Below, one piece after another: positions 24,367 through 64,000 of a stretch of 64,000 nt of DNA. Below the pieces are notes generated by a model that was given only the letters and a program-made list of their open reading frames with translations, was not told the DNA's origin and did not search any database. The position numbers were made by a program, and so were the translations under genes. The stretch spans positions 40,959 to 104,958 of the forward strand of contig DASZWM010000005.1 in the NCBI GenBank assembly GCA_035546615.1, in the 5' to 3' direction. Within the stretch, counting starts at the first letter, position 1. Every line of letters starts with the position of its first letter. This stretch comes from Minisyncoccota bacterium (GTDB lineage: Bacteria > Patescibacteriota > Minisyncoccia > Phycocordibacterales > SBAW01).

Positions 24367-24408
24367 AATATCGCCCGTCCCGGAACCCGGGACGGGCGAT
24401 ATTTTTTA
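24367..24408. terminator. Bidirectional terminator between convergent genes
   Basis: 16-bp perfect hairpin atatcgcccgtcccgg-aac-ccgggacgggcgatat followed by tttttt. Confidence 0.75.
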
Positions 24409-26520
24409 GACGGCTGCAACAGGATTTCTTTCGACGATATCCTGGGTGCCGCGCTTGTAGTTGAAGCGGTCTTCGCTTGAGTCTATGTGGAGTATTAATC
24501 CTTCGCTCTTCAATTCCCGAAGCATAAGCGCGCCGATGTTCTGGGAAATAACGCGGAGCGTTGGATGTACGGAAATGCCCGAACGCAGCTCGACGACAAA
24601 GGCTAGCGCGGGCAGGTCGCCGGTAATGCGGCAGGCAACCTGGTATCCCATCGGGACATAATACTGGGCTAGGGTAGGGGACAGATTCAGCCTCTCGAGG
24701 CCTGCAACGTAGCGGGCGAGAAAAGCTTTCGCCTCGTCCGCGAGCTGTTGCGGTACCTGGCTGAAGTACCATTCGCCGAACCCGTGCTTCGTCGTCAGAA
24801 GCGGCATCCGCTGGGTGATGGAACGATGCCGGTGCAGGTCGCGGAACGAGCCGAAGTCGAGCGGAAACGAGAACTGCATCCCTCCGGCTTCCGCAAGGAA
24901 TTTCGGCAGCTCCGCTTTTGCGGGGCGGCTGTCCAGGATATGGCGATGCTTCTGGAGCAGTCGCGGTTCCACGGTATTCCGCAGCAGAAGAACATTTCCG
25001 TATCCGGCCTTCGAGCCATTAAGGGTCGGTTCTGCTTCAGCGGAATAGTAGTACGCATTCTGCATCCACTCTTCGACGTATTCTTCCTGTGCAGAGTAGC
25101 GCTTAGCGAAGCCGGAATTCGGATACTTCTCCATTAGCGCTTCGCCCACCGCATTTGCGATATCGCGCACTTCTGCAAGCGGATGATGGCGCAGGCGCAG
25201 GAGATGGTCGGAAGCGTGCCGCAGCTCGGTATGCCACGCGAGGTTCGTTGCGGCGCCGGCAGGCAGGAATCCCCGCATGATATCGAACGCGCGGGCATTG
25301 ATGGCCTTCTGCCAAACCTTCTCGTCCTCATCAGTTTGGCGCGGATGGCGCTTGGCGAGCTCTTCCTTCATGGTTTCGAGCCCATTCAGATGGAATGCGC
25401 GCAGCGATTCAAGGAGCTCTGCGCCCTCTGGGGAGTTGTGCGGATTGCCGAACGCCTGTTTGGAGAAGTCGATGTAACGAGTCGAGGATTCCTGCCCATT
25501 GTAGAGCTGGGAGTCTTGTACCGCTTTCGCCGCGAGCATCGACACTCCTTCTATAAAGATGGTCGCCGTGCCGTCATCGCCGATGGATTTGTCGCCGTAA
25601 CCGACATAGTAGGTCTGCATGAAATCTTGGGCGCCCCGCTTGGCAAGCCTGATCAGGTGCGCATCTATGCCGCCCAGGGAGCGCGAATGAAGTGCTTGAA
25701 GCATTGCATCTTCCTCAGCATTGATGATAGCGCCGGTGTCGAGTACGACTACCTGCCCGTTTCCTGGGAGCGGCTTGCGTACGTGTTTCAGGTCTTCGTA
25801 TTTTGTAGCAGTTCCTTTTTGTACTTGTTCCTGCGCGGGTGCGGCGCGTTGTCCGATGTCGCGATCAAGGTAGAGGCGGGGGAGCATCTGCTCAGGGGTC
25901 CAGCTGCTTTTTACCTCTTCAAGGTTCGTGCTGACCTGATATTTGCCGCTCTTGGTGTAATCGGACTGTAGAATAGGCCCGGTCTCGAAGAAGATGATCT
26001 GCGCGATGCGGCGGCCGACCACAAGCGGAATGATGTAATTCTTGGAGTTGTTGGTTATCTCCATCGTCCAGCGGTTGACGTATCCGACGTCGCCCCAGCC
26101 GGCACATTTGCACACTTCTATGAAGTTGCGGCCCATGCTTGAGCGCGCCTTCATCATCGTCGTGATATGGTCGCGCCCGCCGATGAACTCGTTCGTATGC
26201 GCGAGGATGGTTTCGCCGGGCCGCAGGATGATGACCTTGTCCTCCGGGCTGATGCCGTCCCACTCAAAGTTATATTTTTCGAACGCTTCCTTCGCGGGTA
26301 CCGCCCGCTCCACCTTAGAGGCGCCCCACACATGCTCCATGTGCGCGCGGCTCCAGATGTTGTAGAGGCTGTGATTGTACTTGGTCGGCTGCTCGCGGAA
26401 GAAATGCTCCCCGAGCGTCACGTCGTAGGAAGAAGTGGCAAGATTTTCCCGCTTGAACGGCTCTATAATGACGGAGCCTTCCTGCATCGCTTCGAGGATT
26501 TTCTTGTCCGATAGTGCCAT
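24406..26520 (-). CDS. Fusion protein: dCTP deaminase-like domain + two tandem ThyX (flavin-dependent thymidylate synthase) domains
   Basis: 704-aa ORF. Residues 1-190 are Dcd/dUTPase-fold (LSDKKILEAMQEGSVIIEP; KARSSMGRNFIEV...GWGDVGYVNRWTMEITNNS). Residues ~230-480 are ThyX-like and keep the S.RY motif (ESSTRYIDF) but have QDSQ in place of RHR. Residues ~480-704 are ThyX-like with the RHR motif (FRDLHRHRSITQ) but no S.RY. Both halves keep the ThyX C-terminal helix pattern (AR..LP....T..W..N.R.L.HFL.LR). Confidence 0.6.
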   Translation of the reverse strand: MALSDKKILEAMQEGSVIIEPFKRENLATSSYDVTLGEHFFREQPTKYNHSLYNIWSRAHMEHVWGASKVERAVPAKEAFEKYNFEWDGISPEDKVIILRPGETILAHTNEFIGGRDHITTMMKARSSMGRNFIEVCKCAGWGDVGYVNRWTMEITNNSKNYIIPLVVGRRIAQIIFFETGPILQSDYTKSGKYQVSTNLEEVKSSWTPEQMLPRLYLDRDIGQRAAPAQEQVQKGTATKYEDLKHVRKPLPGNGQVVVLDTGAIINAEEDAMLQALHSRSLGGIDAHLIRLAKRGAQDFMQTYYVGYGDKSIGDDGTATIFIEGVSMLAAKAVQDSQLYNGQESSTRYIDFSKQAFGNPHNSPEGAELLESLRAFHLNGLETMKEELAKRHPRQTDEDEKVWQKAINARAFDIMRGFLPAGAATNLAWHTELRHASDHLLRLRHHPLAEVRDIANAVGEALMEKYPNSGFAKRYSAQEEYVEEWMQNAYYYSAEAEPTLNGSKAGYGNVLLLRNTVEPRLLQKHRHILDSRPAKAELPKFLAEAGGMQFSFPLDFGSFRDLHRHRSITQRMPLLTTKHGFGEWYFSQVPQQLADEAKAFLARYVAGLERLNLSPTLAQYYVPMGYQVACRITGDLPALAFVVELRSGISVHPTLRVISQNIGALMLRELKSEGLILHIDSSEDRFNYKRGTQDIVERNPVAAV

Positions 26521-30816: not shown

Positions 30817-32463
30817 TTGTGCATGATCCGTGAGGCATTAGAGAAGGCTATCGCCGCGGCGCTGGGAGAACTCGGCGCCGGCAGTGTTTCGTTTACCGTA
30901 GAGCGCCCGGGCTCCATGGACCATGGCGACTACGCCACCAACGCGGCGCTTGCCGCGGCAAAAGCGCTCAAGAAGAACCCGAAAGAAGTGGCGCAGATGC
31001 TGCTGACCATGCTCAGCAGCATCGAGGGCATAAAAAAAACAGAAATCGCGGGCGCGGGATTCATAAACTTTTTTATTTCGCGCGAAGCGGTTGCAAAAGA
31101 AATCTCGCGCGCCGCGCAGGACGCGGAGTGGGGAAGCAACAGTTTGTATAAAGGAAAGACGGTGATGGTGGAATATACCGACCCGAATCCGTTCAAGGAG
31201 TTCCATATTGGGCATCTGATGAGCAACGCGATAGGCGAGAGCGTTGCGCGAGTACTTGAAATCTCCGGCGCAAAAGTTATCCGCGCTAACTACCAGGGCG
31301 ATGTAGGGCCGCATGTGGCAAAGGCTATCTGGGGAAAGATGCAGAAGCCGGAATTAAGCTGGGGCGAAACGTATGTGCTCGGCAACGCCGAATATGAAGC
31401 GCATAAGGCGGATATCGATATGATCAACAAGCAGGTCTACGAGAAAAGCGACGACAAGGTCGCTGAGCTATATGCCGCGGGACGCAAGCTTTCGCTGGAG
31501 CACTTTGAAGAGCTGTATACAGCGCTCGGCACGAAATTCGACCGTTACTTTTTTGAAAGCGAGACGACGCCCCTAGGCACGGCTCTTGTAAAAAAGCATC
31601 CCGAGCTGTTCGTGGAAAGCGAGGGGGCAAGGGTATTTCGCGGCGAGGAAGAGGGGTTGCATACCCGCGTTTTTATCACTTCGCAGGGCTTGCCGACGTA
31701 TGAAGCGAAGGACCTCGGACTTCTGGACGTAAAGAGCAAAGAGAAGCTCGACGTGTCCATCACCGTTACCGCGAACGAGCAGAACGAGTACTTTAAGGTA
31801 GTTCTTGCGGCTGCCGCGCATATCGCGGAACTTGCGGAGATAGCCGGAAAGACGAAGCACGTCTCGCACGGCATGATGCGCTTCGCCGAGGGCAAAATGT
31901 CCTCGCGCAAGGGGAACGTGATCACCGGCGAGTCGCTCTTGGAAGACCTTAAGGACGCCGCGAAAGAAAAGATGGAGGGCAGGGAACTGGCGGATGCCGA
32001 AAAGACTGCCGAGGCGGTTGCGGTGGGAGCGATAAAGTATTCGGTGCTCAAGCAGGGAAGCGGTCGCGACATTATATTCGACCCGGAGAAGTCGCTGAGC
32101 CTCGAAGGCGACTCGGGACCGTATATACAGTACGCGCACACCCGCGCGCTGTCGCTGCTTAAGAACGCCGGCCGCGAAGGCGTTGAACCAGGAACGGATG
32201 ACAAGCCTGCTGCAGCAAATGCGCTCGAGCGGCTTATTCTGCATTTTCCAGACGTGCTTTCCCGCGCAGCGCAAGAGTTGGAGCCGCATCACATAACGAC
32301 GTACGTTACGGAACTCGCTTCAACGTTCAACAGCTGGTACGCGAGCGAGCGGATTATCGGCGGCACCAATCCGCAGTACGGAATTCTCATCGCGCAGGCG
32401 GTGGAAGCGACGCTCAAAAAAGGCCTGCATGCGCTTGGCATCCCAGCGCCCGAGGAGATGTAA
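30817..32463 (+). CDS. argS: Arginyl-tRNA synthetase
   Basis: 548-aa ORF; class I HIGH (FHIGHLMSNAIGES), KMSK-like GKMSSRKG, ArgRS N-terminal add-1 domain pattern. Confidence 0.9.
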   Translation: MCMIREALEKAIAAALGELGAGSVSFTVERPGSMDHGDYATNAALAAAKALKKNPKEVAQMLLTMLSSIEGIKKTEIAGAGFINFFISREAVAKEISRAAQDAEWGSNSLYKGKTVMVEYTDPNPFKEFHIGHLMSNAIGESVARVLEISGAKVIRANYQGDVGPHVAKAIWGKMQKPELSWGETYVLGNAEYEAHKADIDMINKQVYEKSDDKVAELYAAGRKLSLEHFEELYTALGTKFDRYFFESETTPLGTALVKKHPELFVESEGARVFRGEEEGLHTRVFITSQGLPTYEAKDLGLLDVKSKEKLDVSITVTANEQNEYFKVVLAAAAHIAELAEIAGKTKHVSHGMMRFAEGKMSSRKGNVITGESLLEDLKDAAKEKMEGRELADAEKTAEAVAVGAIKYSVLKQGSGRDIIFDPEKSLSLEGDSGPYIQYAHTRALSLLKNAGREGVEPGTDDKPAAANALERLILHFPDVLSRAAQELEPHHITTYVTELASTFNSWYASERIIGGTNPQYGILIAQAVEATLKKGLHALGIPAPEEM

Positions 32464-32465
32464 CT

Positions 32466-33068
32466 ATGAAAATACTTGGCCGAGGCTGGCAATATACTAC
32501 CTACGATATAGGAAATGGTCGCGTGCTTAAAAAGTATAATTCGTTCCTAGTAGCTTATGCGGTAATGCTCAATGCCTGTGTCAAATCAGATAGGCTTTCG
32601 ATTTTTAAAATTCCGCAATACCACAGAGGCTGTAAAGAATTTGCACGAAGCTCTCTAAAGAAAGCGACCAGTGGCCTGCTTGATAGTTGGATGGTTGGCA
32701 ATCCAAAGCCGCTAAATGAATTGGATTACGAACAAGACAAGCTCATTCCGCTCCATGAACGCATCAACGGAATTAGTTTAGAAAAGGCAAAAGGGTATAT
32801 TGACCGTTTTGTTGATTTCAATAAAACTCTTTTGGAGAGAGGTCTCATCGACAAAAGTTTTAATATTACTAAGAACTTCGGCATAGATTCCGAAGGAAGG
32901 ATTGTTTTGATGGATCTTGGTGAATTGCACTCAGAAAAGCTAGCTATAGAAAAACAACGACGTAAACGGATGTGGACGTACCCATATGTAGTAAATTGCA
33001 TCTTAGATGAGGAAGTACGTGCCTACTATGTTCAGCGGATGGACGAAAGCTTTGGATTAGCCGCATAG
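32466..33068 (+). CDS. Hypothetical protein, small atypical protein-kinase-like (AT-rich islet)
   Basis: 200-aa ORF, markedly AT-richer than neighbours; Gly-loop-like LGRGWQYTTYDIGNGRVLKK, catalytic-loop-like LIDKSFNITKNFGID, DFG-like RIVLMDLGE. Confidence 0.35.
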   Translation: MKILGRGWQYTTYDIGNGRVLKKYNSFLVAYAVMLNACVKSDRLSIFKIPQYHRGCKEFARSSLKKATSGLLDSWMVGNPKPLNELDYEQDKLIPLHERINGISLEKAKGYIDRFVDFNKTLLERGLIDKSFNITKNFGIDSEGRIVLMDLGELHSEKLAIEKQRRKRMWTYPYVVNCILDEEVRAYYVQRMDESFGLAA

Positions 33069-33100
33069 CCTTTGTTTTTAAGGCTTAAGTGCTATAGTTT

Positions 33101-36100
33101 TTGGATATGTCCGAAGTGGGGAAGTCAGAAGTGGCCAAGCGCGAGGAGAAAGTACTCGCTTTTTGGAAAGAACAGCAGATATTCGAGCGCAGCGTTGGGA
33201 AGCGCGCGCCGCGCGGCGAATTCACCTTTTATGACGGCCCGCCGTTCGCAACCGGCCTGCCGCACCACGGCAGCCTCCTGTCCTCGATAATTAAGGACGT
33301 CGTTCCGCGCTATAAGACCATGCGCGGCTACCGCGTCCCGCGCCGCTGGGGCTGGGACTGCCACGGGCTTCCCATCGAGAACCTGGTCGAAAAGAAGCTC
33401 GGCCTCAAGACAAAGAAAGACATTCTTTCCATCGGCATCGATACGTTTAACGAGGAGGCGCGCTCGACCGTGCTCCAATACGTGCACGACTGGGAGCAGT
33501 ACGTGGACCGCGTGGGCCGCTGGGTGGATTTCAGGAACTCGTACAAGACGATGGACAACTCGTATATCGAGACCGTCTGGTGGGCGCTCAAGGAAATGCA
33601 GGACAAGAAGCTTTTGTACGAGGGCCGGAAGGTGCTCATGTACTGCCCGCACTGCGAAACGCCGCTTGCCAAGGCCGAAATTGCCGCCGACAATACCTAC
33701 AAGGATATTACCGAGGAGGCCGTTACCATCAAGTTCAAGCTTAAGTATCCGCAGAAGTTCGGCCTTCCCGAAAATACGTATCTGCTTGCGTGGACGACGA
33801 CCCCGTGGACGCTTCCGGGCAACGTGGGGCTCGCGGTCGGGCCTGACATCCCATACGTGCTTGTGGAGCAAAACGGCGAGTACCTCGTGCTTGCGCGCGA
33901 CCTGAAAGGGCAGGCGTCCGGCACGGTCGCGGGAGAACTGCTCGGCCGGCAGATGGTCGGCGCGGACTACGAGCCGCTCTATCGCATCAATGCGGTAGAG
34001 GCGCACAAAGGAAGGAAGCATCAGGTGCTTGCGGCGGACTTCGTCACTACGACCGAAGGCACGGGCATCGTGCACACCGCCGTCATGTACGGCGAGGACG
34101 ACTTCGCGCTCGGGCAAAAAGAGGGCTTGCCGATGGTGCAGCTCCTCAGCCAGAACGGCACGTACAACGACAACGCGCCGGAGTTCGTGCGCGGCGAGTA
34201 TATAAAGAAGGCGGAGAAGCTCATCAAGGAAGACCTCGAGGAAAAGGGCCTGCTCTTTTCCCGCGCGAACCACACGCACTCCTACCCGCACTGCTGGCGC
34301 TGCGGCACCGCGCTCATCTACAACGCCGTCGCGTCCTGGTTCATCAATATTCAGAAGGTGAAGGCGAAGATGCTTTCGGAGAACCAGAAGATAAACTGGG
34401 TGCCCGCGTACCTGCGCGACGGGCGGTTCAGGAACATCCTTGAGAACGCGCCGGATTGGACGATATCGCGCAACCGCTTCTGGGCCTCTCCCTTGCCGAT
34501 ATGGAAGGAGAAGGGCGGCAAGAACCTGATGGTCGTGGGTTCTGTCGAGGAATTGCTGAAAAAGACGAAGCGCTCCGGCAACAAGTACTTCGTGATGCGC
34601 CACGGAGAGGCGCGTCACAATGTGGAAGATGCCATGGACGGCGCCGGAAGGCCGGACAACCACCTGACCGACGCGGGGAGAGAATATGTGCGCGCGGCGG
34701 CGCAGGAGTTTAAAAAAAGGCAGGAGATAGACCTTATCGTTATGTCTCCGTTCGTGCGCACCCGCGAAACTGCCGCTATCGTCCAGGAAGTATTCGGTCT
34801 TCCCGATTCTGCCGTGGCCGTCGATAACCGCCTCCATGAAATAGGGTTCGGCGAGTTCGAAGGCAGGCCGCTCAGGGAGTGGGCGGAATTCTTCGGTTCG
34901 CTTGAGAACAGGTTCTTAAAGACTCCCGAAGGGGGAGAGCCGTTTAGCGACGTGCGCCGGCGCGTGGGGGATTTCCTGTTCGAGATAGAGCGCCGGTATG
35001 TGGGCAAGAATATCCTCATCGTGACCCACAAGGGGCCGGGCTGGCTGCTTAATGCGGTGGCAAAGCGCTACTCCGCCGCGCAGATAGCCAATGAAGAGGA
35101 ATATTCGCCCTTCATGCGCAACGACAAGGCTCAGCGCATATACGAGCTTCCGTTCACGCCCTTCCCGCACAATAAGGACTACGAGATGGACCTGCACCGC
35201 CCGTATATCGACGCGATAACGCTTGTGGACGCTCAAGGCCGCGGCTACGAGCGCATTCCGGAGGTCATCGACTGCTGGGTCGAGTCCGGCGCCATGCCGT
35301 ACGCGAGCAATCACTACCCCTTTAAGAACAAGAACCGCTTCAATCCGGCGCGCTTCTTCGGCTTGTGGCCGAAAGGTTTCCCGGCGCAGTTCATCGCCGA
35401 GTACATCGGGCAGACGCGCACCTGGTTCTACTACATGCTTGCGGTCAGCACCGTTCTCTCGGGACGGGCCTCATTCCAGAACGTGGTATCCACCGGCAAC
35501 CTGCTTGCGGCGGACGGCGCGAAACTTTCCAAATCCAAGGGCAACTACACCGACCCGCTCAACATCATGAACCAGTTCGGCGCCGACGCGTACCGCTTCT
35601 ACCTCATGGGCTCGGTCGTGATGAACAGCGAGGACCTCCAGTTCCGCGACGAGGACGTGCGCGAGGCCAACAACCGCGTGCTCGGCATACTTTGGAACTG
35701 CTACAAGTTCTTCGAGCTCTACAAAGACGAGCGCGACCCCGCGATACGCGCTCAGGATAGCTCGCACCCGCTTGATCGCTGGGTACTGTCGCTTCTTAAC
35801 AAAACCACTGCCGCAGTAACGGCAGCGATGGAAGCGTACGACACGCCGGGGGCATGCAAGGCCCTGCGCGCGTTCGTCGACGACTACTCCACCTGGTATG
35901 TGCGCCGCTCGCGCGACCGCGTGAAGGGCGAGGATGAGGCTGACAAGCAGTTCGCGCTCGCGACCCAGTACGAGGTGCTTTTAACGCTTTCGCAATTGTT
36001 CGCGCCCATCACGCCGTATATTTCCGAAAGCATCTACCGCTCAGCCGGCGGCGAAGAAGACAGTGTGCACCTGAGCGAGTGGCCGGAAGCCGGAGCCGTG

Positions 36101-36532
36101 GACGAGAAATTGCTTGCCGACATGGAGGTCGTGCGCAAGACCGCGTCGATGGCGCTGGAGGCGCGCGAGCGCGCCGGCATCAAGATACGCCAGCCGCTCG
36201 GGAAGCTCTCCGCAAAGTCCCTGCCCGCCGACTTGGGGCTTCGCCAGCTTATCGCCGAAGAAGTGAATGTGAAGGAGATCATTGAAGATGTCGTGATGGA
36301 AGATGACATATCGCTCGACACCACGATGACGCCGGAGTTGCGCGATGAGGGCATTATGCGCACGCTCATGCGCCGCGTGCAGGAATGGCGCAAGGACGAG
36401 CAGCTCACCATTGCCGACAGGCCGGACTACACGCTCGTCGTTACCGCCGAAGAAAATCCCGTGGCGCAGAAGTACCGCGAAGAGATACGGAAAGCGACCG
36501 GCCTCAATAGCCTCGAAATAACGGTAGAATAG
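33101..36532 (+). CDS. ileS: Isoleucyl-tRNA synthetase (type 2) with an inserted histidine-phosphatase (PGM-family) domain
   Basis: 1143-aa ORF; IleS type-2 motifs FYDGPPFATGLPHHG, WDCHGLPIE, WTISRNRFWASPLPIW, KMSKS as KLSKSKGN. An internal ~200-aa segment (nt ~34580-35170) carries the exact PGM signature VMRHGEARHN and a second catalytic His in IVTHKGPG. Confidence 0.8.
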   Translation: MDMSEVGKSEVAKREEKVLAFWKEQQIFERSVGKRAPRGEFTFYDGPPFATGLPHHGSLLSSIIKDVVPRYKTMRGYRVPRRWGWDCHGLPIENLVEKKLGLKTKKDILSIGIDTFNEEARSTVLQYVHDWEQYVDRVGRWVDFRNSYKTMDNSYIETVWWALKEMQDKKLLYEGRKVLMYCPHCETPLAKAEIAADNTYKDITEEAVTIKFKLKYPQKFGLPENTYLLAWTTTPWTLPGNVGLAVGPDIPYVLVEQNGEYLVLARDLKGQASGTVAGELLGRQMVGADYEPLYRINAVEAHKGRKHQVLAADFVTTTEGTGIVHTAVMYGEDDFALGQKEGLPMVQLLSQNGTYNDNAPEFVRGEYIKKAEKLIKEDLEEKGLLFSRANHTHSYPHCWRCGTALIYNAVASWFINIQKVKAKMLSENQKINWVPAYLRDGRFRNILENAPDWTISRNRFWASPLPIWKEKGGKNLMVVGSVEELLKKTKRSGNKYFVMRHGEARHNVEDAMDGAGRPDNHLTDAGREYVRAAAQEFKKRQEIDLIVMSPFVRTRETAAIVQEVFGLPDSAVAVDNRLHEIGFGEFEGRPLREWAEFFGSLENRFLKTPEGGEPFSDVRRRVGDFLFEIERRYVGKNILIVTHKGPGWLLNAVAKRYSAAQIANEEEYSPFMRNDKAQRIYELPFTPFPHNKDYEMDLHRPYIDAITLVDAQGRGYERIPEVIDCWVESGAMPYASNHYPFKNKNRFNPARFFGLWPKGFPAQFIAEYIGQTRTWFYYMLAVSTVLSGRASFQNVVSTGNLLAADGAKLSKSKGNYTDPLNIMNQFGADAYRFYLMGSVVMNSEDLQFRDEDVREANNRVLGILWNCYKFFELYKDERDPAIRAQDSSHPLDRWVLSLLNKTTAAVTAAMEAYDTPGACKALRAFVDDYSTWYVRRSRDRVKGEDEADKQFALATQYEVLLTLSQLFAPITPYISESIYRSAGGEEDSVHLSEWPEAGAVDEKLLADMEVVRKTASMALEARERAGIKIRQPLGKLSAKSLPADLGLRQLIAEEVNVKEIIEDVVMEDDISLDTTMTPELRDEGIMRTLMRRVQEWRKDEQLTIADRPDYTLVVTAEENPVAQKYREEIRKATGLNSLEITVE

Positions 36533-36536
36533 GAGG

Positions 36537-37130
36537 ATGCATAAGCTGTTCGTAAGCGAAGGACTGGTGCTCGGCAAGCGCGGAGTGGGGGAGGCGAATA
36601 CGCTTCTGGCTATTTTGACCCGCGACATGGGGCTTGTGAAGGCGGTCGCGCGTTCCGCCCGCCGCGAGAACTCGAAGCTGCGCTACGGGCTTGAACCGCT
36701 GACCCTCGCCACGTACTCGTTCATCCGCGGCAAGCACGAGTGGAAGCTTGTCGGCGCCGAGCGCGCATCAAAAGAATTGCAGGACCCGGCGCTGCCGCTG
36801 CCTGCGCGCCAAGCCATGGGCCGCTCCATCCGGCTGCTGCTCAGGCTCATACACGGCGAGGAACACAGCGAAGCACTCTATACGACCGTGATGGAAGGAT
36901 TCAAGGCGCTTGCTTCTTCTGCTCGGCAAACGCCGCAGGAGATGCAGCATGTAGAGACCGTGCTCGTCCTGCGTATCCTCTCGCACCTGGGCTACTTGCC
37001 GCAGACTCCGGAGCTCAAGCCTTTCATTGAGGCCGATTTCTTCGCGATAGAGCTGGCCGCCGAGGTCGCGGCCTCCAAAGCCCTGCTCACGAAAGCCATA
37101 AATGAATCTCTCAACGCTACCGGCTTGTAG
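36537..37130 (+). CDS. recO: DNA repair protein RecO (short form)
   Basis: 197-aa ORF; N-terminal OB-fold pattern (SEGLVLGKRGVGEANTLLAILTRDMGLVKAVARSARR...LEPLTL) typical of RecO. Confidence 0.55.
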   Translation: MHKLFVSEGLVLGKRGVGEANTLLAILTRDMGLVKAVARSARRENSKLRYGLEPLTLATYSFIRGKHEWKLVGAERASKELQDPALPLPARQAMGRSIRLLLRLIHGEEHSEALYTTVMEGFKALASSARQTPQEMQHVETVLVLRILSHLGYLPQTPELKPFIEADFFAIELAAEVAASKALLTKAINESLNATGL

Positions 37131-37153
37131 CGGAGTGATATACTTCTCCCTAT

Positions 37154-39130
37154 ATGGCACGGGAGGAAAAGGGAGGGGTCGAGGGTCTTAAGCGGCGCCT
37201 TTACACGCGCAAGCCCGCTCCGAAAACCGGCGACGCACGAACGCCGCTGTCGCCCTCGGAAACGCACATTCCGACCTCGTGGAGCGAGATACATGCGCCG
37301 GGAGAGGGAGCGGAACCCGCAATGCCCGAGGAGCCCGCGGCTCCGGCCGCGCCCATTACGTCCATAGCCCCGGCGGGCCTTGAAATGTCCAGAAAACGCA
37401 TGACATTCGCCACAAAGTTCTTTTTAGGCTCCATCGCCTTTTTTGTGGTGGCCGCGGGCATTGCGGCCGCGCTCTTCCTCGGAGGCGTCAACACTACTTC
37501 GCCGCAGAATATTTCCATATCGATAGACGCGCCGTCCTTAATAGACGGCGGCAAGGAGGCGCAGTTCAACATCACCATTACCAACCGCAACACCACGTCG
37601 CTCAACGAAGCGGACCTGGTCATCGATTACCCGGACGGCGCGCGCGCGGTGAACGACCCGACGCAGGCACTGACCCACGAGCGCATTTCGATAGGCACTA
37701 TCAAATCAGGCGAGCAGATAAAGCGCACGGCTTCGGCGCTCTTGTACGGGCAGGAAGGCGCGCAGCAGAAATTAGTCGCGCGGCTCGAATATAATCTTTC
37801 GGGCTCCAACGCCGTGTTCGAGAAATCCGCGGAGACGTCGTTCACCATCGGCTCGGCACCGGTATCGCTCACCGTGGACGCTCCGGAGCGGGTTATCGCG
37901 GGCGACCAGTTCGCGATGGACATAACCGTGCGCTCAAACGCAGCCGCTCCCGTCAACAATGTCACCGTGGAGGCGCAGTACCCGTTCGGATATTCCGTCG
38001 CGGCAGCAACGCCCTCAGCCGCAGCAGGCGGTTCGCTCTGGCGCCTGGGCACGTTGGCGCCCGGCGCTTCAAAAAAGATACACATCACCGGCGCCATAAC
38101 CGCCTCCGACGGAGACGACCGCGTATTCAAGTTCCTGATAGGCTCCAACGCCGACCAGACCGACGTGCATGTGCGCGTGCCGTTCCTAACGCTGCCGCAG
38201 ACCATAAGCGTCGAGCGGCCGTTCATTAGCGGCTCGGTTTCCGTGGAAGGCAAAACGGGCCAGAGCATTTCCGTCGCGGCGGGAAAGACATTGCGCGGCA
38301 CGGTGGAGTGGGAGAACAATCTCGACGACTCCATCTCCGACCTTGAGCTCAGTCTTTCCTTCAGCGGCCCCGCGCTCGATAAAAGCTCCGTGAACGCGCA
38401 GAACGGCTTCTACCAGTCGGGGAACTCCACCATAATCTGGACGAAGGACCGCAGCGGGGAGCTCGAGTCGGTAGCGCCCGGCGCCACGGGCTCCTACCAA
38501 TTCTCCTTCGGTACGCTTCCGCCGGGCTCGTCCGGCACGCTCATCACTAATCCGACCGTAACGCTCAACCTCACTGTGCGCGCGGTGCGCCAGGGCTCAA
38601 GCGGCTCGCCTGAGACAATCACTTCAGCGGCGACCGCCAAGGTAACGCTCGCATCCCAGCTTTCAATAGGCGCGGAATCGTCGCACTCGGGCGGGCCGTT
38701 CCAGAACGGCGGGCCGGTGCCGCCGCGCGCCGAAACGCCGACCTCCTACACGATTACCTGGACGGTAAAGAACTCCGCCAATGCAGTTGCCAATGCTGTG
38801 GCTTCCGCCGTGCTGCCGCCGTACGTCACCTTCGTCACCGCGCAGTCGGGAAGCGGCATCACGTACGACTCCGGCAGCCGCACCGTGCGCTGGAACCTGG
38901 GCGACGTGAAGGCGGGCGTGGGCTATACCACCGCCGCGCGCCAGGCCGCTTTCCAGGTGACGCTCACGCCAAGCGCCTCGCAGGTAGACTCCGTGCCTGC
39001 CCTTACGGGCCCGGCCAGCATTACCGGCCAGGACCGCTTCGCGCAGGTTACGGTGGAGGGCCAGGCGGAGTCTGTCAGTACCCATACCAGCGACGGCGGC
39101 AGCGGCAATGACGTTGTACAGCCGAAGTAA
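37154..39130 (+). CDS. Large membrane-anchored surface protein with repeated beta-sandwich (DUF11/CARDB-like) modules
   Basis: 658-aa ORF; Pro/Ala-rich N-terminus, single TM (FFLGSIAFFVVAAGIAAALFL), then repeated ~100-aa Ser/Thr/Val-rich modules (NITITNRNTTSL..., VTVEAQYPFGY..., NLTVRAV...). Confidence 0.5.
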   Translation: MAREEKGGVEGLKRRLYTRKPAPKTGDARTPLSPSETHIPTSWSEIHAPGEGAEPAMPEEPAAPAAPITSIAPAGLEMSRKRMTFATKFFLGSIAFFVVAAGIAAALFLGGVNTTSPQNISISIDAPSLIDGGKEAQFNITITNRNTTSLNEADLVIDYPDGARAVNDPTQALTHERISIGTIKSGEQIKRTASALLYGQEGAQQKLVARLEYNLSGSNAVFEKSAETSFTIGSAPVSLTVDAPERVIAGDQFAMDITVRSNAAAPVNNVTVEAQYPFGYSVAAATPSAAAGGSLWRLGTLAPGASKKIHITGAITASDGDDRVFKFLIGSNADQTDVHVRVPFLTLPQTISVERPFISGSVSVEGKTGQSISVAAGKTLRGTVEWENNLDDSISDLELSLSFSGPALDKSSVNAQNGFYQSGNSTIIWTKDRSGELESVAPGATGSYQFSFGTLPPGSSGTLITNPTVTLNLTVRAVRQGSSGSPETITSAATAKVTLASQLSIGAESSHSGGPFQNGGPVPPRAETPTSYTITWTVKNSANAVANAVASAVLPPYVTFVTAQSGSGITYDSGSRTVRWNLGDVKAGVGYTTAARQAAFQVTLTPSASQVDSVPALTGPASITGQDRFAQVTVEGQAESVSTHTSDGGSGNDVVQPK

Positions 39131-39168
39131 TTGTTTCGTTTTCCGGACTATAGTACAAACATAAGGAT

Positions 39169-40560
39169 ATGGCTGAAATGGACTTGATGGAGAAGATAGT
39201 GTCGCTGTGCAAGCGGCGCGGCTTCGTATTCCAGGGCTCCGAAATATACGGGGGGCTCGCCGGCACCTGGGACTACGGGCCTCTGGGCGCTGAGCTCAAT
39301 AACAACATCAAGCAGTACTGGTGGAAGACGTTCGTATATGACCGCGACGACGTGTACGGCGTGAACGCCTCTATCCTGATGCATCCGCGCGTATGGGAGG
39401 CTTCCGGCCATACGGAAGGATTTACCGATCCGCTGGTGGAAGACAAAGTGACGCACAAGCGCTACCGCGCGGACCATATCCTTGAAGACGCGGGCGTGGA
39501 CGTGAAGAACCTCTCCGTCGCCCAGATGGGGGAGAAGCTCGCCGAATTGAAACTCAAGAGCCCGGATGGCAACGCGCTTACCGAGCCGAAAGTGTTCAAC
39601 CTGCTCGTAGAGGCCGGCATCGGCGCCGTCGAGGGCGCGAAGGAAAAGGTATTCCTGCGCGGGGAGATAACGCAGGGCGTGCACGTGAACTTCAAGAACG
39701 TGCTCGACGCGATGCACCCGAAGATCCCGTTCGGCATCGCCCAGATAGGGAAGGCATTCCGCAACGAGATAGTGCCCGGCAACTTCCTCTTCCGTGTCCG
39801 CGAGTTCGAGCAGATGGAGCTCCAGTATTACGTGAAGCCGGAGGATGAGGAAAGCAAGAAGCAATACGAGGCTTGGAAGGAGCGCAGCATGGAATGGTAC
39901 AAGGGCCTCGGCATCAAGCCCGAGAACCTGCGCTTCCGCCAGCACGAAACGGACGAGCGAGCGCACTACGCGCGCGATGCGTGGGACATAGAGTACCAGA
40001 CGCCGTTCGGCTGGAAGGAAGCGTGGGGCATACACCACCGCGGCGACTGGGACCTCAGGCGCCATCAGGAGTATTCAGGCCAGTCGATGGAATACGTCGA
40101 TGACGAAGGAAAAAAGTTCTTGCCGTGGATAATCGAAACTTCGGGAGGCGTCGGCCGCGCCTTTCTTTTTACGCTTCTCGATGCCTACCGCGAAGACGAA
40201 GTCGGGGGAGAGAAGCGGGTTTACCTTGCGCTGTCTCCGCGCGTAGCGCCGGTCAAGGCCGCCGTGTTCCCTTTGCTCAAGAACAAGCCGGAGCTTGTGG
40301 CCAAAGCGCGCGAGATATACGCCGCGCTCAAGAAAGAGATTCCGCAGGTCGTGTTCGACGACAACGGCAACGTCGGCAAGCGGTACCGCCGGCAGGACGA
40401 GATAGGCACGCCGTGGTGCATCACGATAGATTTCGACACGCTCGGCGAGAATCCGGAGCTTACAGATACTGTCACGCTGCGCGACCGCGACACGGGCGAG
40501 CAAAAGCGCGTCGCAGTGAGCGAATTGGCTTCGCTTCTGCTTCCGCTGGCGAAGGTGTAG
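39169..40560 (+). CDS. glyS: Glycyl-tRNA synthetase (alpha2, eukaryote/archaeal type)
   Basis: 463-aa ORF; FQGSEIYGGLAGTWDYGPLG, class II motifs, C-terminal anticodon-binding domain. Confidence 0.9.
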   Translation: MAEMDLMEKIVSLCKRRGFVFQGSEIYGGLAGTWDYGPLGAELNNNIKQYWWKTFVYDRDDVYGVNASILMHPRVWEASGHTEGFTDPLVEDKVTHKRYRADHILEDAGVDVKNLSVAQMGEKLAELKLKSPDGNALTEPKVFNLLVEAGIGAVEGAKEKVFLRGEITQGVHVNFKNVLDAMHPKIPFGIAQIGKAFRNEIVPGNFLFRVREFEQMELQYYVKPEDEESKKQYEAWKERSMEWYKGLGIKPENLRFRQHETDERAHYARDAWDIEYQTPFGWKEAWGIHHRGDWDLRRHQEYSGQSMEYVDDEGKKFLPWIIETSGGVGRAFLFTLLDAYREDEVGGEKRVYLALSPRVAPVKAAVFPLLKNKPELVAKAREIYAALKKEIPQVVFDDNGNVGKRYRRQDEIGTPWCITIDFDTLGENPELTDTVTLRDRDTGEQKRVAVSELASLLLPLAKV

Positions 40561-40570
40561 TATAGGGGAG

Positions 40571-41641
40571 ATGCCGAAGAATCTCTCCGTCACCATCAGC
40601 CCGTCGACCATATTCACCACCATCCTCATCCTCGCGGGGGCGGCGCTTTTGTACTACCTGCGCGACCTGGCGCTCATGGTGCTTACCGCCGTGATTATCG
40701 CGTCGGCCATGGAGCCGGGCGTTCACGCCTTCGTGCGCCGCGGCGTGCCGCGGGTGCTCGGCGTCATTATCATGTACCTTACCGTCGCCTCGGTCTTCTT
40801 CGGCGTGCTGTTCCTCTTCATCCCGCCGGTCTTGAGCGACTTGGCCACGTTTTTGGCAACGCTCCCGCAGACGCTCGTATCGCTCAACATTTCCGACGTA
40901 ACGCACGGGCTCCTTCCGTGGGGGAGCGTGGCGGATACTGTTTCCTCGGCCCAGCTTCTGCAGAATGTATCCTCGGCGCTTGGCGACTCGGCCGGAGGCG
41001 CGTTCTCCACGCTTTCCTCCATCTTCGGCGGCCTTACGTCATTCGTCCTCATTGTCGTGTTCTCTTTCTACTTCTCCGTGCAGGAAACCGGCGTGGATGA
41101 CTTCCTGCGCGTCGTGACGCCGGTCAGCGAGCAGGCGTACGTGCTCCATCTCTGGAAGCGCAGCCAGGAGAAGATAGGCAAGTGGATGCAGGGCCAGCTC
41201 ATACTCGCGCTTATCGTGGGCGTACTGCTCTATCTTGGTCTCACTATACTTGGCGTGCCGCACGCGCTTTTGCTTGCGATACTGGCGGGCATGTTCGAGC
41301 TCATACCGGTCTTCGGCCAGTTCCTGGCGGCCGTTCCGGCTATCGCCATCGGCTTCAGCGTGGGAGGCGTCACCGAGTCGCTTCTTATCGTCGGCCTCTA
41401 TATGCTGGTGCAGCAGTTCGAGGCGCATCTCATCTACCCGGTCGTGGTGAAGAAGGTCGTGGGCGTACCGCCGCTCATGGTCATCCTCGCGCTTCTCATC
41501 GGCTTCAAGCTCTTCGGGTTCCTCGGCGTGCTGTTGTCCGTACCCATCGCCGCAGCCATACAGGAGTTCCTGTCCGATGTGGACCGCGAGAAGACGCGCG
41601 CGCTCGCGCGGCAGCTTGCGGCTGAGCACGCGAAAGAGTAG
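40571..41641 (+). CDS. AI-2E family transporter (UPF0118/PerM-like)
   Basis: 356-aa ORF; 7-8 TM helices with the AI-2E arrangement (central large loop, C-terminal IPVFGQFLAAVPAIAIG block). Confidence 0.65.
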   Translation: MPKNLSVTISPSTIFTTILILAGAALLYYLRDLALMVLTAVIIASAMEPGVHAFVRRGVPRVLGVIIMYLTVASVFFGVLFLFIPPVLSDLATFLATLPQTLVSLNISDVTHGLLPWGSVADTVSSAQLLQNVSSALGDSAGGAFSTLSSIFGGLTSFVLIVVFSFYFSVQETGVDDFLRVVTPVSEQAYVLHLWKRSQEKIGKWMQGQLILALIVGVLLYLGLTILGVPHALLLAILAGMFELIPVFGQFLAAVPAIAIGFSVGGVTESLLIVGLYMLVQQFEAHLIYPVVVKKVVGVPPLMVILALLIGFKLFGFLGVLLSVPIAAAIQEFLSDVDREKTRALARQLAAEHAKE

Positions 41642-41650
41642 TTTTCTGAT

Positions 41651-43081
41651 ATGGCCGACAAGAAAACGTTTTACCTCACGACGCCGATTTTCTATCCCAA
41701 CGCGAATCTGCATTTGGGCCACGCGTACGTAACAACCTTGTGCGACGTTCTTGCCCGCTACCATCGTTTGGCGGGGGACAAGACGTACTTTTTGACCGGT
41801 TCGGACGAGAACGCGCAAACCGTATTACAGGGAGCAAAGAAGGCCGGCAAAGACCCGGAAGTATTTCTGGAGGAGATTGTCACTAATTTCAAAAAGCTGT
41901 TCGCGAGCCTGAATATTTCTCAGGACCAGTTCATCCGAACATCCGACAGGCAAGTGCACTGGCCCGGCGCCATCGCTCTCTGGAAAAAACTGGATGTCGC
42001 GGGTGACATATACAAAAAAGAGTACGAGGGCCTGTACTGCGTCGGTCATGAGGCATTCATAACCGAAAAGGAATTGGTGGATGGCAAATGCCCCGACCAC
42101 GGTACTGTGCCGGAACTAGTCAAAGAGGAAAATTACTTCTTCCGCCTTTCCAAATACACGGATGCTATAAGAAAAAAGATAGAGTCAGACGAACTCAGTA
42201 TCGTTCCTACCACCCGAAAAAAGGAAATCCTCTCTTTTCTGGAGGAAGGGCTGCAGGATGTAAGTTTTTCTCGTCCTAAGACTTCTAACGCGGTGGGCAT
42301 TCCCGTTCCCGGGGACGACTCACAGGTGATGTATGTGTGGTGTGATGCGCTTTCAAACTACATAACAGCGCTTGGGTACGGTAAGGATGATGAATCGCTC
42401 TACAAGGAGTTTTGGCCCGGTATACATGTTGTGGGAAAGGACATCCTGCGCTTCCATGCCGCAATCTGGCCGGGCATGCTCATGTCCGCCGGTATTCCGC
42501 TTCCGCAGAAAATATTCGTGCACGGAATGATAATTTCCGGCGGTAAAAAGATGTCCAAGACTCGCGGGAATGTCATTGATCCGGTTGAACTGTTGAGCGA
42601 ATACGGAACTGACGCGGTACGCTACTTCCTTTCGCGCCACGTCTCGCCTATGGAGGACAGCGAGCTTACCTTAGAAGGGCTTAAGGATATCTATAATGCC
42701 GATTTGGCGAATGGTCTTGGCAACCTAGCTGCGCGCATCATGCAGCTCGCACAAACACACCTTGCTGAGCCCGTGGTCGTAGAATTTACCGGGTATCCAG
42801 AAGAATATACGAATGCCCTTGAACGCATGGAAATCAATAAAGCCGCTGATTTCGTCTGGAGCCGCATCAAGAGCCTAGACCAGCAAATAACGGACACGAA
42901 GCCCTTTACGGTAGTGAAAGAGAATCCCGAAGAAGGAAGGAAGCTTATCGCCGCGCTGGTGCGCGAGCTTGCGGCTGTAGACCTTCTTATCGAGCCGTTT
43001 ATGCCCGAAACCAGCAAGAAGATAATCGACGCCATCATGGCGAACAAAAAGCCCGAGAATCTTTTCCCTCGCAAAGACTAA
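41651..43081 (+). CDS. metG: Methionyl-tRNA synthetase (catalytic core, no C-terminal tRNA-binding domain)
   Basis: 476-aa ORF; HLGH (PNANLHLGHAY), KMSKS (KMSKTRGNV); ends after the anticodon-binding domain. Confidence 0.9.
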   Translation: MADKKTFYLTTPIFYPNANLHLGHAYVTTLCDVLARYHRLAGDKTYFLTGSDENAQTVLQGAKKAGKDPEVFLEEIVTNFKKLFASLNISQDQFIRTSDRQVHWPGAIALWKKLDVAGDIYKKEYEGLYCVGHEAFITEKELVDGKCPDHGTVPELVKEENYFFRLSKYTDAIRKKIESDELSIVPTTRKKEILSFLEEGLQDVSFSRPKTSNAVGIPVPGDDSQVMYVWCDALSNYITALGYGKDDESLYKEFWPGIHVVGKDILRFHAAIWPGMLMSAGIPLPQKIFVHGMIISGGKKMSKTRGNVIDPVELLSEYGTDAVRYFLSRHVSPMEDSELTLEGLKDIYNADLANGLGNLAARIMQLAQTHLAEPVVVEFTGYPEEYTNALERMEINKAADFVWSRIKSLDQQITDTKPFTVVKENPEEGRKLIAALVRELAAVDLLIEPFMPETSKKIIDAIMANKKPENLFPRKD

Positions 43082-62644: not shown

Positions 62645-62842
62645 GTCTAAAAATTTGCACGAAGCGGCCTTTGACAAGTGAATTCCATTACGCAGCCACT
62701 TCCAATGTGGGTCTTTTTGTGGATGCGGAAATGGGCAGGTAAAAACAAAAAATTAAATTACAAACATGTATAGACATGTGTTTGTAAGCAACAACAGATT
62801 ATTGCGGTTCTCAAGCTTCTTTTCTCTGTAAAGAGAGGGGAA

Positions 62843-64000
<1,158 letters not shown>

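Follow-up and report, generated by a model that had tools for sequence, protein, structure and literature searches.

A histidine-phosphatase domain nested in the catalytic body of type-2 isoleucyl-tRNA synthetase from Patescibacteria

The DNA considered here (the window) is a stretch of 64,000 nucleotides from a Minisyncoccota bacterium (assembly GCA_035546615.1, contig DASZWM010000005.1, positions 40,959 to 104,958), and the element of interest is its ileS gene, which encodes an isoleucyl-tRNA synthetase (IleRS) with a histidine-phosphatase domain inside its catalytic body. The gene is a single open reading frame (ORF) of 1143 residues without a stop or frameshift (Table 1), and no second ileS lies within the 64-kb window. 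A protein of 1141 residues in NCBI (P0026), from a metagenome-assembled genome (MAG) of Candidatus Paceibacterota and encoded on a 105-kb contig, is 100% identical and starts at the ATG two codons downstream. Along the protein Pfam places tRNA-synt_1 (residues 18-493), His_Phos_1 (497-659), tRNA-synt_1g (735-861), Anticodon_1 (892-1033) and DUF5915 (1070-1136).

The sequence-only reading had taken the protein, apart from its insert, for a typical type-2 IleRS (IleRS2), and this holds. It scores 817.8 bits against the ileS equivalog model TIGR00392 (cutoff 621.4), which places it among the IleRS. An AlphaFold2 model calculated from an 84-sequence alignment has a mean predicted local distance difference test score (pLDDT) of 87.5 and a predicted template-modelling score of 0.77, with the insert as the most confident region (pLDDT 91-97). 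The model as a whole is matched by IleRS2 of P. megaterium (8C8V, E=1.8e-75), the yeast enzyme (8WND) and that of T. thermophilus (1ILE, target-normalised TM-score 0.90); the target-normalised TM-scores to 8C8V and 1ILE span 0.79-0.90, and the IleRS1 structures (8C9E, 1QU2) score lower. With 8C8V, 1ILE and 8WND, examples of the eukaryote-like, mupirocin-resistant type, the window protein shares domain order, fold, CP1 motifs, KMSKS loop and a DUF5915 C-terminus, but it differs from them in a CP3 that is about 200 residues larger and holds an enzyme domain, in the loss of the CP3 zinc ligands and in an HxGS signature. In the family alignment the CP1 editing columns W231-T237, G320-T321-G322, V324, H325 and D334 are invariant, and the editing motifs, the CP-core cysteines (C182, C185, C398, C401) and the KMSKS loop are all invariant or nearly so (at least 90%). 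The fourth position of the HHGS motif (residues 55-58) is Ser in 72 of 84 close homologues, Asn in 7 and His in 5, with KMSKS intact, whereas more distant insert-bearing IleRS keep HxGH; the IleRS2 signature variants described in the literature are HXGH and the mupirocin-hyper-resistant G/AXHH. Judged by its sequence and model, the gene would encode a working-looking type-2 IleRS, in which fold, KMSKS loop, CP1 motifs, CP-core cysteines and anticodon domain all appear intact.

A segment of about 200 residues between the WxISRxR motif and DLHRPYID had been noticed at 34580-35170, and this position falls within the insert as now placed (Table 1), with all the motifs quoted for it located as described. 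Comparison with IleRS that have no insert (P0127, P0017 and the IleRS2 of Lentisphaerae and Kiritimatiellia) puts the insertion point between a short helix, GSVEELLKK(TK), and the conserved DLHRPYID, that is, between the two halves of CP3 at residues ~490-696. The two flanking anchors are 261 residues apart in the window protein and 62-67 apart in P0127 and P0017. Among 210 fetched sequences that have both anchors 208 carry the insert, and in all but three of these the anchors are 223-275 residues apart, the three standing at 442-467. The CP3 subdomain corresponds to residues 473-534 of Candida IleRS and 459-526 in the yeast IleRS structures (PMC7191050; PMC7955072). Its residues flank the active site, and the CP2-3 linker immediately before it, ARDWNVSRNRYWG, forms part of the tRNA 3'-end pocket that is mimicked by reveromycin A (PMC7955072).

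In T. thermophilus IleRS, CP3 carries a zinc motif (PMC7191050), and it had been suggested that the insert may replace this zinc-binding element. The suggestion calls for refinement. All four CP3 cysteines are gone in the window protein (KEKGGK...VDAQGRG, against CKKC...CSCG in P0127), as they are in 165 of the 208 insert-bearing proteins; however, 34 of the 208 keep both knuckles, so that insert and zinc site are compatible. From these alignments the insert is best described as nested inside CP3, between the halves of the former zinc knuckle, and not as a replacement of the zinc module. The two insert-less relatives stand within the insert-bearing clade. P0127, on a contig of 3.6 kb, has intact zinc knuckles that are seen in none of its 83 relatives in an 84-sequence family alignment (A2), which suggests either replacement of the CP3 cassette or a chimeric contig; P0017, on a contig of 0.9 kb, has neither the cysteines nor the insert.

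The insert itself had been proposed to be an entire phosphatase domain of the phosphoglycerate mutase (PGM) family, and a complete branch-1 histidine-phosphatase fold is indeed found in the catalytic body both by Pfam and by structure comparison. The hidden Markov model (HMM) of PF00300, His_Phos_1, matches with E=3.2e-32 and 112.2 bits, or 116.6 bits for the segment alone, against a gathering cutoff of 21.7. The family signature VMRHGEARHN (R500-N507) and the second histidine in IVTHKGPG (H643) are both present. Among solved structures those nearest in sequence are PhoE, a phosphatase of broad specificity from Geobacillus stearothermophilus (1EBB/1H2E, E=3e-11), and PspA, the metal-independent phosphoserine phosphatase of Hydrogenobacter (4IJ5). 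R500/H501, N507, R553, E580 and H643 align on the catalytic residues of PhoE, where the counterparts of R500, H501, R553, H643 and E580 are R9, H10, R59, H151 and E83; the five catalytic residues are thus all in place, together with N507. The alpha/beta fold can be superimposed on solved branch-1 members, which makes the insert a member of that branch. The values tabulated for the insert against solved relatives are 21.2 for PspA, 20.4 for glucosyl-3-phosphoglycerate phosphatase (GpgP), 20.3 for PhoE, 20.2 for a riboflavin-pathway histidine phosphatase, 19.4 for CobC and 18.5 for human PGAM1, and for the protein phosphatases 15.2 (SixA), 14.4 (PGAM5) and 13.8 (Sts-2).

No characterised group within the superfamily claims the domain. 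The models for bisphosphoglycerate-dependent PGM (dPGM) give 17.7-31.1 bits against cutoffs of 81.7-366, and the archaeal dPGM model NF038349 gives 66.4 against 225; in place of the dPGM motif E-R-x-Y-G the window protein reads HEIGFGEFEG, and ER.YG occurs in 1 of 208 inserts. The phosphohistidine phosphatase SixA (TIGR00249, 36-41 bits, cutoff 74.5) and the alpha-ribazole phosphatase CobC (TIGR03162, 75.3 against 162.9; NF011580, 53.2 against 250) fall short likewise, as does the best NCBIfam match of the insert, the RNase H/acid phosphatase model NF005567 (101 against 326). As for the whole protein, it is neither of the mupirocin-resistance IleRS MupA and MupB (653 and 634 bits against 1900) nor the GNAT-containing IleRS of NF040702 (310 against 1999), and it has no Acetyltransf match. 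An intein was also considered and rejected: a whole-protein Pfam scan finds no Hint or intein family, Lys, and not a Cys/Ser/Thr nucleophile, comes after the 'HN' at 690-691, and the fold is that of His_Phos. PADLOC gives no match for the insert. On sequence comparison, then, the insert is a branch-1 superfamily member of the small-substrate PhoE/PspA/GpgP/CobC type that belongs to no characterised orthologous group. PhoE, PspA, GpgP and CobC are only 23-31% identical to it in sequence and are described in the literature as dimers. Whereas those of known structure (1H2E/1EBB, 4IJ5, 6S2Q and 6E4B, respectively) are free-standing, the domain in the window is a monomeric module nested in another enzyme.

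The catalytic residues of the insert are almost invariant among the 208 proteins (Table 1), while its mean identity to the window protein is 0.49, with a lowest value of 35%, against 0.84 and 0.71 for the two Rossmann halves (alignment A2). As a whole it changes more quickly than they do. Conservation extends to the return linker (F685, P689, N691 and DLHRP). Such a pattern reads as the signature of a retained catalytic function and not of structural filler, and because the catalytic set is invariant the insert is probably an active phosphomonoesterase. An added activity, either hydrolytic or editing-like, had been suggested as possible: the hydrolytic part is well supported as a potential of the domain, the editing-like part finds no support, CP1 being intact. 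In one sub-clade of the family (P0056, P0062, P0070, P0115 and about 15 more) some 30 residues of the cap after the catalytic Glu are deleted; what remains is a SixA-like minimal core with all the catalytic residues.

Table 1. Features of the ileS gene and its insert (positions in the window; fractions are counts of sequences with the residue)
Feature	Position	Strand	Remarks
ileS ORF	33101..36532	+	TTG start 33101; ATG 33107 gives the 1141-residue NCBI protein
Class I signature motif, non-canonical H55-H-G-S58	33263..33274	+	Ser in place of the fourth His
CP1 editing domain, about residues 200-400, WTTTPWT 231-237 and GTGIVH 320-325	33698..34300	+	Invariant columns; fold match to IleRS2 structures
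CP2-3 linker WTISRNRFW, residues 453-461	34457..34483	+	Lines the tRNA A76/reveromycin pocket in yeast IleRS (PMC7955072)
CP3 N-terminal half, residues 463-489	34487..34567	+	Beta-beta-helix; first zinc knuckle lost (KEKGGK)
Inserted module, residues ~490-696	34568..35188	+	His_Phos domain and return linker; placed by comparison with insert-less relatives
His_Phos_1 (PF00300) match, residues 497-659	34589..35077	+	Pfam
RHG motif: R500, nucleophile H501, N507	34598..34621	+	R 207/208, H 208/208, N 195/208
R553, second phosphate-pocket Arg (SPFVRTRETA 549-558)	34757..34759	+	208/208
E580, proton donor (LHEIGFG 578-584)	34838..34840	+	204/208
H643, second catalytic His (IVTHKG; IVTHKGPG 640-647 at 35018-35041)	35027..35029	+	207/208
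Return linker, residues 660-696	35078..35188	+	F685 77%, P689 95%, N691 77%; pLDDT 72-94
CP3 C-terminal half and start of second Rossmann half, DLHRPYID...EVIDCWVESG	35189..35290	+	Second zinc knuckle lost (VDAQGRG)
DLHRPYID, residues 697-704	35189-35212	+	Conserved block
KMSKS loop K808-L-S-K-S812 (KLSKSKGN 808-815)	35522..35536	+	K808, S810, K811 and S812 each 84/84
Anticodon-binding domain, residues 892-1033	35774..36199	+	Pfam Anticodon_1
DUF5915 C-terminal domain, residues 1070-1136	36308..36508	+	Pfam; also in retrieved IleRS2-type relatives

The fusion recurs widely. PF00133 and PF00300 are carried together by 119 of the 120 closest clusters at 90% identity, which are 56-100% identical to the window protein and come from NCBI, JGI, ENA and Logan on contigs of up to 722 kb. 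A HMMER search with the insert and both junctions returned 165 clusters (50% identity) at E<=1e-30; among the best 150 nearly all match the whole 280-residue query, and the matches sit at about position 450-750 of proteins of 1100-1560 residues. The insert and IleS form one uninterrupted tblastn segment in five species-representative genomes, and the gene order ArgS-IleS-RecO-DUF11 protein-class II aminoacyl-tRNA synthetase (aaRS) is kept in eight related loci; a genome scan with the IleS protein covered 6 loci, close relatives only. GC content is uniform, at 0.57-0.60, over the insert and the sequence on either side of it. The 58 full-length representatives are without exception IleRS-like (N-terminal core 35-60% identical, WTTTPWT in 55 of the 58), and no ValRS or LeuRS with such an insert is found among them. 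Some short proteins with IleRS and His_Phos matches on long contigs (P0001, P0002, P0008) are not split genes but products of frameshift-riddled assemblies that break up the adjacent ArgRS as well, and P0010, with a LeuRS-editing label in Pfam, is an IleRS fragment.

A search with a distant member of the family (P0273) found His_Phos in the IleRS2 of Peregrinibacteria/Peribacteraceae and Gracilibacteria (taxon names of relatives are here the source labels), while named IleRS2 relatives from outside the candidate phyla radiation (CPR), those of Lentisphaerae and Kiritimatiellia with about 1045 residues, have no His_Phos insert. Using an HMM built from the insert we mapped the copies in 120 proteins. 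CP3 holds one copy in 18 proteins, two tandem copies in 39 and three in a single protein (P0367). A further 17 have a normal CP3 of 71 residues and one copy only after KMSKS, at the junction of the stem-contact and anticodon domains. Copies lie both between DxWxxS and KMSKS and after KMSKS in 5 proteins, in CP3 and after KMSKS in 3, and at all three sites in 1; in 3 the stretch from DxWxxS to KMSKS has one or more copies, either by itself or together with CP3. No copy was detected in 30 proteins, and in the remaining 3 the anchors were not found. Multi-copy relatives include P0230, P0264, P0268, P0367, P0225, P0274 and P0316.

RH[GAS] and the distal His are present in 138 of the 139 copies. 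Identity is 0.38-0.56 within a positional class (0.35 for the 9 copies between DxW and KMSKS) and 0.24-0.31 between classes, which is no higher than to free-standing homologues, and the tandem copies of a single protein share an identity of only 0.25. By these identities the positional classes are at least four old, distinct His_Phos lineages, and their presence in the IleRS2 of Paceibacteria, Peregrinibacteria and Gracilibacteria, in one to three copies and at three sites, is a lineage-wide inherited trait. The same IleRS scaffold accepts other modules, seen in the P0273 group and in P0203, P0315, P0353, P0313, P0330, P0333 and P0334. GNAT modules occupy up to two sites per protein and occur together with His_Phos in the P0273 group, P0314 and P0332. 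A P-loop kinase-like module with the Walker A motif GACGAGKT (AAA_18/AAA_33; Zeta_toxin in P0315) stands alongside His_Phos in P0203 and P0315, DUF559 endonuclease-like domains are found in some relatives and an alpha/beta-hydrolase in P0353. P0307 is an IleRS2 of 2230 residues without His_Phos and with roughly 1150 extra residues beyond the normal C-terminus.

Several known proteins resemble this arrangement in part. GNAT-containing IleRS (NF040702) provides a precedent for a foreign enzyme domain in IleRS, although the window protein has a phosphatase, at a different site, and no GNAT. The RNase H/acid phosphatase proteins (Rv2228c type, NF005567) and the Nudix-His_Phos protein MutT1 (3FJY, 9CXX) are end-to-end fusions with other partners, while the insert in the window is nested. 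Both 6-phosphofructo-2-kinase/fructose-2,6-bisphosphatase (1BIF) and T4 polynucleotide kinase/phosphatase have a kinase, in contrast to the window protein, which has no kinase module and whose relatives give weak kinase matches (28.9 bits against a cutoff of 29.4); the phosphatase of the T4 enzyme is moreover a HAD enzyme and not a His_Phos one. A further parallel is CP1 of the class Ia aaRS, where a hydrolytic domain likewise interrupts the Rossmann fold and the tRNA CCA end translocates to it. CP1, however, is universal and ancient and hydrolyses aminoacyl esters, whereas the His_Phos insert is lineage-restricted, lies in CP3 and would act on phosphate esters.

On balance we favour the view that the insert is an active small-substrate phosphomonoesterase that is functionally coupled to IleRS and whose substrate may be a nucleotide phosphate in the catalytic cleft. 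Hydrolysis of phosphomonoesters or terminal phosphoanhydrides through a phospho-histidine is the established chemistry of the superfamily. In the window protein the phosphate would be bound by R500, R553, N507 and H643, as their invariance suggests, and the phosphoryl group would pass to H501 to give a phospho-histidine intermediate, with E580 as the proton donor, and then be hydrolysed. That the activity is coupled to IleRS and not merely co-expressed with it is suggested by the distribution of the domain, because IleRS has fixed distinct phosphatase lineages at three positions, with as many as three copies per protein, and nearly all copies retain their catalytic motifs.

What the substrate might be is more speculative; we would look for it on a nucleotide that enters the catalytic cleft of IleRS and bears a phosphate or pyrophosphate at its terminus. 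Our first choice, put forward tentatively and with a low expectation, is tRNA-Ile whose 3'-terminal adenosine carries a 2'/3'-phosphate or a toxSAS-type 3'-pyrophosphate that blocks aminoacylation. toxSAS toxins, some of them tRNA-specific, are known from the literature to pyrophosphorylate the tRNA CCA end and so to block aminoacylation. In class Ia enzymes the CCA end already shuttles between synthetic and editing sites, and the phosphatase might serve as a third station. This reading of the tRNA 3'-end is supported by the position of CP3, which adjoins the A76 pocket, by the shuttling of the CCA end to CP1 as a natural precedent, and by the joint occurrence of kinase and His_Phos in P0203 and P0315, which resembles the pairing in polynucleotide kinase/phosphatase. 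Fusions of His_Phos to nucleotide and nucleic-acid enzymes (3FJY, 9CXX and RNase H/acid phosphatase) support a nucleotide or RNA substrate more generally. Next we would place a by-product of the adenine-nucleotide kind or else an inhibitor that carries phosphate, which is equally speculative and about as doubtful. We think it unlikely, though worth considering, that the IleRS of Patescibacteria has its own repair or immunity station, or destroys a phosphorylated adenylate-site poison at the synthetase. If it does, this would be a new kind of aaRS-embedded quality control, exerted on the phosphorylation state of the tRNA and not on the amino acid, and the GNAT, P-loop-kinase and alpha/beta-hydrolase modules of the sister proteins would belong to the same toolkit.

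Several points weigh against a coupled phosphatase with such substrates. The nearest structural relatives are generic small-molecule or metabolic phosphatases, and an electrostatics test found no RNA-binding charge signature, since the median net charge of the insert is -2 and thus slightly acidic. Repair of a tRNA end would not require two or three copies, and a toxin that acts on tRNA-Ile alone is hypothetical. The domain would also be dispensable for aminoacylation, because close relatives without the insert exist (P0127, P0017).

The last of these points, like the missing charge signature, would also fit an autonomous housekeeping phosphatase that rides in IleRS, fused to it for co-expression in a streamlined genome and without any role in translation. 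It might be the PGM that is 'missing' in some Parcubacteria, a phosphoserine phosphatase that needs no metal, or a salvage phosphatase of the broad PhoE-like kind. Several shallow clades of Parcubacteria reportedly lack PGM, for which too great a divergence of the forms may account (PMC7304191), and the automatic name given by JGI to some of the proteins is 'IleRS/bisphosphoglycerate-dependent phosphoglycerate mutase'. As a PGM, however, the domain is contradicted by dPGM models far below their cutoffs and by the near absence of ER.YG, and chance co-expression hardly accounts for the repeated fixation of distinct lineages at three sites, one to three times per protein. The insert is present in a Gracilibacteria-labelled MAG, and glycolysis is reported to be wholly missing from a complete genome of Gracilibacteria, a point that is only suggestive. 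We consider this explanation rather unlikely.

A phosphatase acting in cis on a serine of the KMSKS loop seems less probable again, and we would be surprised by it. It would confer immunity to HipA- or HipT-like toxin kinases, or serve, with the kinase and GNAT modules of some relatives, as a built-in on/off switch. The analogy comes from HipA, which phosphorylates GltX at S239 (KLSKR), and HipT, which phosphorylates TrpS at S197 (KMSKS), with no reversing phosphatase known (PMC6581861). Both S810 and S812 of the loop are invariant, KMSKS lies, in sequence, between two of the three insertion sites, one sub-clade has been reduced to the cap-less, SixA-like core, and the superfamily does include protein phosphatases (SixA, PGAM5, Sts). 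Yet the score against the SixA model is about half its cutoff, and the co-inserted kinase is of the P-loop AAA_33/Zeta type, which acts on small molecules or polynucleotides, and not of the Hanks or HipA type. No Hip-like kinase was seen, and the 200-residue ORF just upstream of ileS matches no family and is unique to this genome.

Editing-like hydrolysis, the destruction of a misactivated aminoacyl-adenylate or of mischarged tRNA, is very improbable. The insert is a hydrolase inside the catalytic body of an editing aaRS, and CP1 sets the precedent of an inserted hydrolytic domain in class Ia, but the canonical CP1 motifs are intact and invariant, so that there is no need for a second editing site, and all the closest relatives are phosphomonoesterases. 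The branch-1 R-H-R-H pocket binds terminal phosphate groups, and acyl-adenylates and aminoacyl esters are not such substrates; editing by this domain is chemically unlikely.

We give as little credence to a catalytically irrelevant structural substitute for the lost CP3 zinc knuckle. The loss of all four cysteines in most insert-bearing proteins, the window protein included, speaks for it, but the catalytic residues are 98-100% conserved in a domain with a mean identity of 49% to that of the window protein, the 34 proteins noted above keep knuckles and insert together, P0017 has neither, and the copies at other sites are unconnected with the zinc site of CP3. A mis-join of IleRS and phosphatase genes, conceivable in a metagenome-derived contig, is effectively refuted by the same architecture in hundreds of independent assemblies (NCBI, JGI, ENA, Logan; 32-100% identity, contigs up to about 750 kb) with conserved gene order, an uninterrupted frame and homogeneous GC.

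Around ileS the window has no RNA-repair, toxin or kinase genes of known family. The ORF of 200 residues mentioned above (32466-33068, + strand) lies between the ArgS stop and the IleS start and has a GC content of about 0.40 against 0.58. It has no match in Pfam, PADLOC or the PDB sequences, and none of the eight related loci has it; judged by eye only, its sequence may hold a GxGxxxxxY...K and DLG pattern like that of protein kinases. Because it is unique to this genome it cannot explain a family-wide trait. The nearest free-standing homologue of the insert, P0021, has an uninformative P450/PEP-utilising neighbourhood. Within 12 kb (30817-43081) the window contains four aaRS genes, for ArgS, IleS, a class II HGTP-anticodon aaRS and MetRS; genes for RecO, a DUF11 surface protein and an AI-2E transporter lie among them. 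Elsewhere, an ORF of 703 residues (24406-26520, - strand) has dCTP-deaminase-like and ThyX (Thy1) domains, so that two enzymes of the dTMP pathway appear to be fused in it. At 62835-64000 the window contains the start of a 23S rRNA gene, and the rRNA genes appear unlinked since no 16S rRNA or spacer tRNA is found in the 62 kb upstream.

Full-text literature searches found no paper that describes the His_Phos-in-IleRS architecture or a precedent for it. The sequences themselves are public and carry automatic labels such as 'isoleucyl-tRNA synthetase/bisphosphoglycerate-dependent phosphoglycerate mutase' or '.../phosphohistidine phosphatase SixA/...GNAT', though for most relatives the NCBI label is 'class I tRNA ligase family protein'; of the curated precedents, the NCBIfam exception model for GNAT-containing IleRS comes closest. 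Few enzymes have been studied as thoroughly as the aaRS, and to our knowledge the catalytic domains found embedded in them are essentially editing domains. The protein described here is an aaRS with an embedded accessory domain whose chemistry is undescribed, in a modular family that is unusually rich.

A second, chemically unrelated active site, that of a predicted phosphate-ester hydrolase, has thus been fixed in IleRS over a large part of the CPR, and repeatedly so. The pattern implies a selective need that links phosphate chemistry to the charging of isoleucine and that nobody has described. Depending on the substrate, it could reveal a mechanism of tRNA-end repair or toxin resistance, an antidote to IleRS poisons, a translation switch in ultra-small symbionts or a cryptic enzyme of the glycolytic or serine pathway. 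In the last case reconstructions of CPR metabolism may mis-score the pathways concerned, PGM being apparently missing in some Parcubacteria (Jaffe et al, 2020).

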